The notes beneath the pieces are model-generated. The model was not told the DNA's origin and ran no database searches. It saw only the letters and a program-made list of their open reading frames with translations. The position numbers and the translations under genes are program-made. A stretch of DNA of 62,137 nt, filler included, from Hausera hauseri (Eukaryota), in assembly GCA_046269625.1 (NCBI GenBank). It is 10 parts of 10 records of this genome, joined end to end, with 100 filler letters (N's around TTAATTAATTAA, not from the genome) between each part and the next. Parts side by side here need not be neighbours in the genome. Positions count along the whole stretch, not along the records: positions 27,332 to 38,797 come from JBJURY010101098.1; 9 more parts are not named here. The stretch is one strand, 5' to 3'. How positions within the stretch are numbered: position 1 is the first letter of the stretch; each line of letters opens with the position of its first letter. This document shows positions 31,555-32,945 of this stretch, one piece after another.

Positions 31555-32945
31555 TCAGGTTATTCCATCATTGATTTCATCCTGTGGTACCATCACCCTT
31601 AATTCCCTCTCGGTGATTTTATGACGCTTACTATAACAGTTTTTGGTAATCAATTGACAAGACGCAATAAGAATTATGAGAGCAAATATTGATGTTCCAA
31701 TAATTAATATTACTGATGAAGTTATCCATTTAGTTAGTTTTTCCGTTTTAACGGTAGTCGAAATTTCGCTTTTCGTTTCCTCATTAGTCAGTGGTTTCAT
31801 TAAGACAATCTCGTTTAAGATTCGTACCGTAAAGGTTTTACTTTGTCTATTCTTTGCACTTATTTGTATTACGTAGTATGTTTTGTGTTTCAAGTAGGTA
31901 CATTTGATTCAATGACTGCCTTTAGCCAATGTTATTTGCTGATTATTATGCACTGTTCGGCAGCTTATTTCTACGTCGTAATTAAGTGTTTCTTCCACAA
32001 CGAACGTTATTTCATATTGTTGTGTCCGATATTTTATAGGAATTATTTCTAGCTCCTTTTGGGGTAATCCAGTCGTTTGGAGGAATTTAGTGGAAGTTAA
32101 AGTAGTTTTATTTATTTTTGTAGTCGTAATTCTGCTGGTCGTCGTTTCAAGTGGAATTCCCTGGATTAGATTTTCCGTTTGGTAACTTCCTAGGAAGATA
32201 CTCGGCTGGCTTGGTCGAATTTCATATAAGTCTAGTCGGATTCTGTATTTATATTTTTGAGGTAACTTACAACATCTATTCGGTTTTTTAATTTCGATTT
32301 GACAGTACTGCTGATTATGGGCTGCTTTGTCCTCTCTTATGAATTGAACCGTGATTACTCGATCCTTAATTAGACGTCTTTTGTGTTCATTTGGATACAA
32401 TTATCCTTTGGGTTTTCCGTTATACTAGCTATATTTTCTTGTAGAATCCGTTTTAATGGGTCGTTGGACTGGAGCATGTCTTCTAACTTTATATTAAGAT
32501 AATCTCCATAAGTTTGTGATATAACCAAGTGTGAATTCAGATTTATTTCAGTGTACTTCATTACAGTTCGGTAAATATGAACGATAGCGGAGGGCGTAAG
32601 AATGTCCGTACTCTACGTTGCAGCAAGTTGTATCGTCTTCTGGCACGAATTTACAATCAGACTCTGTTTGGCTTAATAGGTCGCGGAAGTATCTGGATTT
32701 CCCCCACATATGGTCCTGGTATCCTAAACCCGACACATGGGGCTTCTGGCTCTTAAAATTTTTCGTCTTTTTGTTCTGGTTTGTGTTGGGAAGTTCCCTC
32801 CTTTTGTGGTGACGGTTTTAATACGACTTTCCTGATTCCATATATATCGCTCAACGAAGTTTCATCGACCCACCATTGGGCGTTAGATTGGGGAGTTCAA
32901 ACTGCGAGCAACGATAATGCTACTATTATCTGTGCGTAAGATACT
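31555..32945 (-). pseudogene. Second type-I membrane protein fused after integrase (signal peptide, Cys/FN3-like repeats, Thr-rich stalk, TM)
   Basis: Leader YAQIIVALSLLAV, LKHKTYYVIQISAKN, TTTSRITTT, TM WITSSVILIIGTSIFALIILIASC. Confidence 0.7.

Follow-up and report, generated by a model that had tools for sequence, protein, structure and literature searches.

A Ty3/gypsy retroelement of Hausera hauseri seems to carry two surface proteins, a gB-type fusion glycoprotein between gag and pol and a second protein behind the integrase (IN). The window, by which we mean the whole stretch of DNA that was analysed (62,137 nucleotides, filler included, from assembly GCA_046269625.1), supports the view that the element encodes, behind IN, a type I membrane protein with tandem predicted fibronectin type III (FN3)-like beta-sandwich domains. 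A fuller reading, that this second membrane protein has three predicted FN3-type domains, is likely cut from a polyprotein and is likely the cell-attachment partner of the gB-type fusion protein, is one that we hold with as much doubt as belief, and attachment as the main role of the protein falls slightly short of that.

Self-blastn of the window found five decayed copies of one GAG-ENV(gB-type)-POL Ty3/gypsy element, with 67-83% identity, in animal-type DNA with assembly gaps. The element family is repeated, because 26,670 contigs of one public run, which contains about half of the sampled words, align on copy 3. In copy 1 a CCHC knuckle (Pfam zf-CCHC at 2-613, E 7.5e-7) is followed 3.6 kb on by the fusion glycoprotein, and the env pieces match PF24664 in Pfam with E 3e-15 (copy 1) and 2e-29 (copy 2). 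Env is followed by the protease (PR) in copies 2 and 3, and PR, RT, RNase H (RH) and IN stand in Ty3/gypsy order in copies 2-5. The knuckle and gB-type env of copy 1 and the pol order of copies 2-5 together therefore give the order GAG-ENV-POL, and the window copies have both the PR-RT-RH-IN pol of Ty3/gypsy elements and the env between gag and pol of the gB-type errantiviruses. The Pfam rve match of copy 3 (E 7e-6) is below the cut-off, the RVP match of copy 5 has E 2.5e-6, and relatives of the element's IN bear RT/IN Pfams. By eye only, the env resembles the planarian C1a rows of Chary and Hayashi's Supplementary file 2. A hydrophobic stretch (KD11 2.5) lies upstream of env in copy 1. No second LTR copy was found within the window by self-blastn, and the putative LTR end rests on one copy.

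The overall order is gag..env-PR-RT-RH-IN-leader-D1-D2-stalk-D3-stalk-TM-tail-UGA (Table 1). In three copies (3, 4 and 5) the IN frame is colinear with a signal-like leader, three beta domains of about 85 aa (D1 to D3), Thr-rich stalks, a TM helix and a short tail. The motifs which the original prediction had read at 31555..32945 are all there, on the minus strand: copy 3 has YNLRPRE..YAQIIVALSLLAV in the IN frame, followed by the domain motifs CCNVEYGHSYAL at 32625, CCKLPQKYKYRI at 32274 and CTYLKHKTYYVIQISAKN near 31902. The hydrophobic leader which it had described as kept in copies 3, 4 and 5 reaches KD11 2.5-2.9 in all three, and its Thr-rich stalk is present too, but as two stalks rather than one, the first separating domains 2 and 3 and the second just ahead of the TM. 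KD19 of the TM helix is 2.8 and 2.4, the former in copy 3, whose tail ends at the TGA at 31557-31555; the copy 5 region from leader to tail is 54062-55487 (+). No window copy is unbroken; within the FN3 region of copy 3 the frame shifts three times and meets three in-frame stops. Contigs of other copies differ from copy 3 by small indels at about the places where it is broken, so the breaks look private.

Table 1. Features of the element, as coordinates of the window
Feature	Position	Strand	Basis or remark
Copy 3 env, gB-type (class III) fusion glycoprotein, decayed; first surface protein	36735..38461	-	blastn to copies 1, 2
Copy 3 pol: PR, spacer, RT, RNase H, IN, decayed	32957..36500	-	ORFs; rve, RVP matches
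Protease-site-like motif TSSI at IN/leader junction, copy 3	32957..32968	-	same pattern at PR, pre-RT and IN N-ends
Internal signal-peptide-like leader, copy 3, in frame with IN; private stop 32899-32897	32879..32956	-	KD11; same leader N-terminal in P0024
Domain 1, FN3-like beta sandwich, four Cys	32520..32745	-	best-modelled part (copy 4); best VIA-align match
Domain 2, tandem repeat of domain 1, four Cys	32190..32500	-	internal repeat in P0024; Foldseek tandem-FN3 matches
Thr-rich stalk 1	32074..32151	-	also in P0024, P0025
Domain 3, FN3-like, L-x-P-x-[TD]-Y-x-[IV]-x-[IV]-x-A; private stop 31911-31909	31804..32073	-	Pfam fn3 below cut-off
Ser/Thr-rich stalk 2, TM helix 31713-31657, basic cytosolic tail of about 33 aa	31558..31803	-	
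Terminal TGA, then CAACTA (CARYYA readthrough-type)	31549..31557	-	identical in copy 5, 55485-55493
Predicted long hairpin, begins 12 nt past stop; branch-point-like site in 3' arm	31475..31542	-	same hairpin in copies 3, 5
Splice-acceptor-like site: branch point, pyrimidine tract, YAG 31454; in-frame ATG 31452	31450..31480	-	
In-frame ORF past stop: N-terminal domain without assignment and DEDDh-like exonuclease fold, degenerate motif I	30526..31554	-	
Continuation: K/E-rich stretch, C3HC4-type RING finger (29414-29274); stops and frame change near 29830	29226..30342	-	
Copy 3 polypurine tract (PPT) 29053-29042 and putative 3' LTR (TG 29041 to about ..TAACA 28318)	28318..29053	-	read from sequence
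Copy 4 counterpart: leader, D1, D2, stalk, D3 start; ends at assembly gap	43030..44020	-	
Copy 5 counterpart: leader to tail, TGA-CAACTA, acceptor 55585, ATG 55590, dead-nuclease ORF; ends at assembly gap	54062..56880	+	

From this layout a mechanism can be proposed. The polyprotein would pass the membrane four times, with the signal before env, the env TM, the signal after IN and the FN3 TM. The element protease would cut at [TV]SSI and release IN from the leader, and the host signal peptidase would cut behind the leader and release the ectodomain; with one polyprotein and both cuts, the fusogen and the FN3 protein would therefore be made one to one. Most ribosomes would terminate at the UGA, and the dead-nuclease/RING gene, which has an ATG of its own, would come mainly from an mRNA spliced at the strong acceptor. 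A minority of ribosomes would read through UGA-CAACUA, with the hairpin behind it, and make an FN3-TM-RING protein tethered to the membrane. Among the roles considered for the FN3 protein, attachment on behalf of the gB-type fusogen is the likeliest; herpesviral gB depends on separate receptor-binding proteins, while VSV G and GP64 are not known to do so. The scheme as a whole, a two-protein entry system (gB-type fusogen and FN3 attachment protein in one four-pass polyprotein) with a leaky stop/acceptor that switches a pseudonuclease-RING module between a free form and a membrane ubiquitin ligase tethered to the surface protein, is tentative, and we think it unlikely to hold in every part.

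The leaky-stop-like context and the acceptor behind the tail are additional to the original prediction, which had not mentioned them. TGA-CAACTA lies inside 15 bases that are identical in copies 3 and 5, and in both of the two copies that reach here the stop is followed by a CARYYA-type hexamer and an in-frame ORF. CARYYA occurs at 91 of 31,833 sense positions. The frame past the UGA stays open for 34 codons into the conserved ORF (chance about 0.15), a stretch that has no codon signature (4/8/6, p 0.51). Nucleotide identity peaks after the stop, at 0.82 versus 0.5-0.7 in the flanks, as does synonymous conservation (14/18 versus 152/319, p 0.011). The predicted hairpin has z -2.45 and -4.34 in a window picked after seeing it, and -1.08 (copy 3, weak) and -4.27 in a wider window; covariation of its pairs is not significant with two sequences (108-250/500 shuffles), and Rfam returned only sub-threshold miRNA-like hairpin matches. 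For the stretch with stop, hairpin and acceptor (31557-31450 on the minus strand, 55485-55592 on the plus strand) RNAalifold also gave an alternative hairpin in which the stop region is paired with the first arm, and the stop stretch could therefore be a structural switch. The acceptor, on the 3' side of the hairpin, ranks first among 290 YAG sites in copy 3 and first among 195 in copy 5. In copy 3 the stop/hairpin bin has about ten times the contig depth of the ectodomain bins, but such depth is no measure of copy number and carries no weight here. Since the acceptor is top-ranked and followed by an ATG, and the 34 codons have no codon bias, the downstream gene most likely comes from a spliced mRNA: the predicted acceptor is probably used, and readthrough at UGA-CAACUA is an even bet.

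Similar signals are known. CARYYA is the TMV-type readthrough hexamer (available text of PMC2194720 and PMC4132726), the pol/env stop of SIRE1 is suppressed (same papers and PMC8310308, in part), and Tca2 is described in the available part of PMC2194720 as a case where a good-looking readthrough context can fail. Alphavirus UGA readthrough has a 3' stem-loop (PMC8310308, in part), and the window element has a predicted hairpin. Unlike in these readthrough systems, the stop here follows a membrane-protein tail and overlaps a splice acceptor.

The accessory gene behind the stop spans 31452-29226 (-) and 55590-56880 (+). Its ORF shows selection in its codon bias (p 1.5e-9), and its DEDDh-like part matches DnaQ at E 0.0026, with SDN1, PolC and ISG20L2 weaker; Atlas RNase_T clusters at 0.86-0.87 are a lead only. 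In copies 3 and 5 the catalytic D-x-E of motif I is replaced by N-C-G, which leaves a likeness of fold and not a DEDDh catalytic site. The RING finger matches zf-RING_2 at E 1e-8, above the cut-off, just before the PPT and the putative LTR. A structure model of the post-stop ORF had pLDDT 31, too low for use.

This gene raises the possibility that the FN3 protein acts in the producing cell and not in entry: its ectodomain would bind a host surface protein, and the readthrough form would bring the RING to that protein, so that a restriction factor or a receptor is removed. Herpesviral K3/K5 and cellular GRAIL/RNF43, which are RING ligases anchored in the membrane, offer an analogy. The RING lies inside the element, before the PPT, the frame continues from the cytosolic tail through UGA-CAACUA, and the topology fits because the tail is on the cytosolic side. 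Against this, the strong acceptor and its own ATG are a simpler route to the RING gene, the linker has no codon signature and the readthrough is putative, and we regard such a role as distinctly improbable.

AlphaFold was run on copy 4 with an alignment of 8 rows, with stops read as X and only the first half of D3 in the model. The model is almost all-beta, at a low confidence (mean pLDDT 47, pTM 0.33), and D1 reaches pLDDT 62-79 by blocks. Foldseek against the PDB gave one match at E <=0.001, 9,10Fn3 (E 5.2e-4), with low TM-scores, and FN3-containing proteins made up 44 of 44 among the matches listed: fibronectin, tenascin, neogenin, DCC, integrin beta4, Tie2, NCAM, titin and cytokine receptors, the last being what we take those rows to be. 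VIA-align, over 48,161 chains, gave a monobody as best match (Z 6.5, rmsd 2.5, 76 aligned) with other Ig-like sandwiches tied; there was no match at Z >=8, and Z <8 may mean a common arrangement. A fold search of BFVD found no match at E 0.001, with FN3-named viral proteins at ranks 2-3. Pfam fn3 (PF00041) on D3 gave E 0.032 for the copy 5 piece and 0.12 for P0025, a relative described below, both below the cut-off (14.9 and 13 bits, where the gathering score is 25 bits), and none for P0024, the other relative. The LxPxTxYxVxVxAxN-type FN3 signature named in the original prediction was found in domain 3 of copy 5, P0024 and P0025, where the pattern L-x-P-x-T-x-Y-x-V-x-V-x-A is complete, and is degenerate in domains 1 and 2. 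The ectodomain had no PDB sequence match, and the Atlas features of copy 4's 201-aa ORF gave leads below 0.83 only, to unrelated clusters. The tandem FN3-like domains of the original prediction are thus favoured by the all-beta model and by FN3 proteins at the top of the Foldseek and VIA-align searches, and weakened by the pLDDT of 47, the best Z of 6.5 and the sub-threshold Pfam matches; altogether the models suggest that the domains are, with good probability, beta sandwiches of FN3 type.

A HMMER profile search of 1.84 billion representatives returned four matches, among which P0024 (479 aa, E 9e-69) and P0025 (189 aa, E 1e-45) are genuine relatives, both single sequences from ENA. The other two, P0026 and P0027, are unrelated repeat proteins and were dropped. 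P0024 is intact, with leader, D1, D2, Thr stalk, D3, stalk, one TM and tail, four N-glycan sequons and 12 Cys, and it confirms the whole predicted type I membrane protein layout. Its D1 and D2 align with a local score of 70, which 0 of 1000 shuffles reached; D2-D3 scores were reached by 25 of 1000, and D1-D3 is not significant. The C-terminal ends of P0024 and P0025 fall on the same aligned residue as those of the window copies. A word-indexed search with the copy 4 region found no homolog among 1101 candidates, and protein and DNA patterns found no loci in JGI metagenomes or IMG/VR, and none in phages.

The original prediction had the protein captured from a host receptor, a claim which gained no support, as no cellular homolog of the ectodomain was found in homolog, profile and PDB sequence searches. 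The same result bears on a second alternative, in which the protein is an immune decoy or receptor mimic, derived from a host cytokine-receptor-like or adhesion gene and shown on the producing cell, not for entry. A disulfide-bearing tandem FN3 pair with a short tail does resemble the cytokine-receptor ectodomains among the fold matches, and the ectodomain evolves fast. The searches found no host homolog, though, WSxWS, the class I cytokine receptor motif, is missing from P0024, P0025 and the window pieces, and the tail is without a signalling domain; we rate a decoy as very unlikely.

At the junction with IN, the three copies were one reading frame in origin. The junction is colinear in 3/3 copies. 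The frame of IN runs on into the leader in copy 3 alone; a private frameshift interrupts it at one place in copy 4 and at another in copy 5, and copy 3 has a private stop just past the hydrophobic core. The fusion through an internal signal peptide, as originally predicted, is thus borne out by the colinear junction and the private breaks, and is limited by the fact that copy 3 alone is open into the leader and that P0024 has its own Met. A conserved stop after IN would have pointed to a separate ORF, and none stands at the IN end in 3/3 copies, all of them decayed. No usable in-frame ATG lies within 120 nt upstream of the leader in copies 3 and 5, and the ATG near the leader of copy 4 coincides with that copy's break. 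The pattern [VIT][SN][SATF][IV] stands just before the leader in 3/3 copies (VSSI in copy 4 at 44020, TSSI in copy 5 at 54062) and also at the PR, pre-RT and IN starts, with 14 boundary matches out of 29 in total and about 17 expected by chance overall, in copies that are not independent of one another; this protease motif is no independent test, because it was defined by eye on these same sites. Further upstream, the env-PR linker is open in copy 3 and is interrupted in copies 1 and 2 by private stops, at codons that differ between the two, and env is in frame with pol in one polyprotein, as in Burro elements.

These data also speak to a third alternative, that the FN3 gene is a separate ORF3, expressed from its own ATG or a spliced mRNA, whose in-frame position behind IN is incidental or derived. 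P0024 was annotated as a gene of its own; its first residues, MLDDSMGNNMARP, do not resemble the IN tail, and its Met stands right before a textbook N-terminal signal. A word-indexed homolog search of 4450 candidates, 840-2395 aa long, gave no fused protein, which is a weak test; none of 20 distant IN relatives shows a signal-like stretch directly behind IN, and a YAG is present at the junction in all three copies. Those YAGs rank only 13/290, 13/195 and 16/132, however, and the missing IN-end stop, the lack of a conserved ATG and the protease-site-like motif exactly ahead of the leader all count against a separate gene, which we consider a poor prospect. Comparison of the three junctions instead makes it quite probable that the FN3 protein is fused in frame to IN in the element's subfamily. 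The fusion may not hold family-wide, because the intact relative P0024 starts with its own Met just before the leader.

The FN3 region is a real gene of the element. Between copies 4 and 5, pN is 0.24 and pS 0.65 over 210 codons, a dN/dS of 0.19, and other pairs gave 0.23-0.38 or were saturated, compared with 0.05 for RT and 0.07 for IN. A DNA-only control counted 79/80/127 mismatches by codon position for copy 4 versus 5 (p 4e-4), and a weaker 115/85/113 for copy 3 versus 5 (p 0.067). These comparisons indicate that the region was under purifying selection as it evolved, with dN/dS about 0.2. The ectodomain evolves faster than pol (0.19-0.38 versus 0.05-0.07), as do host-facing proteins. An assembly artefact or chance ORF is ruled out by this selection and the natural relatives P0024 and P0025, and a host gene inserted beside the element by the position of the region between IN and PPT in three copies.

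The attachment reading can be set beside several known systems. Errantiviruses of gB type with the order GAG-ENV-POL are known from Platyhelminthes, Bryozoa and Nematoda (Chary and Hayashi, eLife, PMC13524379, in part), and like the window element they have a Ty3/gypsy pol and a gB-type env between gag and pol. The available text of PMC13524379 mentions no fibronectin, exonuclease, RING, polyprotein or fusion, unlike what is seen here, and it describes no post-IN surface protein because only GAG, ENV and POL are annotated there. Burro, or GYPSM1, a giant gypsy of planarians, encodes env as part of one polyprotein, in frame with gag before it and pol behind it, and has extra, ubiquitination-linked accessory domains, in accessory ORFs and perhaps also as polyprotein subdomains, which is like the window element (PMC6431247, in part). 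The same excerpts list no FN3 or second membrane protein for Burro, unlike here. Its MATH, BCL2, BIR, ankyrin, SUMO-like and dUTPase domains (PMC6431247, in part) had no Pfam match here, in a search that covered 12 copy 1 fragments and three pieces of the spacer between PR and RT, all of them short and decayed. The internal region of Burro is about 25 kb, while the 5' end of the window element falls outside the window. In Atlas virus, GN and GC lie behind pol within one Gag-Pol-Env polyprotein; this virus and the nematode belpaoviruses are alike to the window element in having surface glycoproteins fused behind pol and a receptor-binding GN apart from the fusogen GC (PMC9094657, in part). Atlas virus is, however, a BEL/Pao element with a phlebovirus-like class II GN-GC env (PMC9094657, in part), whereas the window element has a class III fusogen before pol and an FN3-based second protein. 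The remark in the original prediction that a polyprotein crossing the membrane several times is unusual for a retroelement was therefore overstated, given Burro (PMC6431247, in part) and Atlas virus (PMC9094657, in part).

Other likenesses are looser. ORF3 of bdelloid LTR elements (PMC5408684, in part) shows that DEDD exonucleases or small TM ORFs occur in retroelements, although the rotifer ORF3s are DEDDy with catalytic residues kept (PMC5408684, in part) and the window element's is DEDDh-like and dead. MDG1 elements have small TM infectivity proteins (PMC11952523, in part). The planarian nidovirus PSCNV also has fibronectin-type modules beside Thr-rich regions (PMC6211748, in part), but these are FN2, an unrelated fold. 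Literature searches turned up no FN3 surface protein accompanying a gB-type env, though Repbase GYPSM entries and figures could already show a post-IN ORF, and the available part of PMC11410931 added nothing on such a protein. Multi-pass retroelement polyproteins are already known, then, and what seems new here is the FN3 surface protein behind IN, together with the UGA-CAACUA/hairpin/acceptor cassette.

Errantiviruses are described as having gag, pol and one env, and the window element would add a second surface protein. If the attachment reading is true, a second surface protein that evolves fast and is produced in a 1:1 ratio to a class III fusogen would suggest that some errantiviruses keep receptor binding apart from fusion, in the manner of large enveloped viruses. 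The intact relative P0024 is an expressible candidate for how gB-type elements choose their target cells, and the stop/hairpin/acceptor cassette is a compact candidate recoding signal in an animal retroelement.

Several other features of the window were noted. Between the gag zinc knuckle and env of copy 1 lies about 3.5 kb of decayed, helical-looking coding DNA (660-4230, +), with no Pfam match above the cut-off in 12 pieces. A conserved, beta-looking spacer of about 90 aa lies between PR and RT (36025-35790 on the minus strand, 25250-25470 on the plus strand, 47100-46870 on the minus strand), in the position of Burro's dUTPase-like domain; a dUTPase-like identity, suspected by eye, was without Pfam support in the three spacer pieces, which are short and decayed. 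A small stand-alone RING-finger ORF with an ATG (39413-39667, -; E 3e-7) adjoins protein-primed DNA polymerase B-like fragments at 40562-42981, recognised by eye and possibly a Polinton-type relic, and an ORF at 8706-9329 (+) looks, also by eye, like a Polinton-type integrase with a chromodomain. A small gypsy family that is distinct from the five copies and not related to them has left pieces (RT, PR, gag and an IN tail) at 17184-20515 (-) and 59074-60984 (-). Next to this small gypsy element, an ORF at 21208-21963 (-) resembles a fragment of a host HEAT-repeat gene, presumably a proteasome activator PA200-like C-terminus, and a long GA/CA-rich simple-repeat tract with masked stretches occupies 12849-16445.
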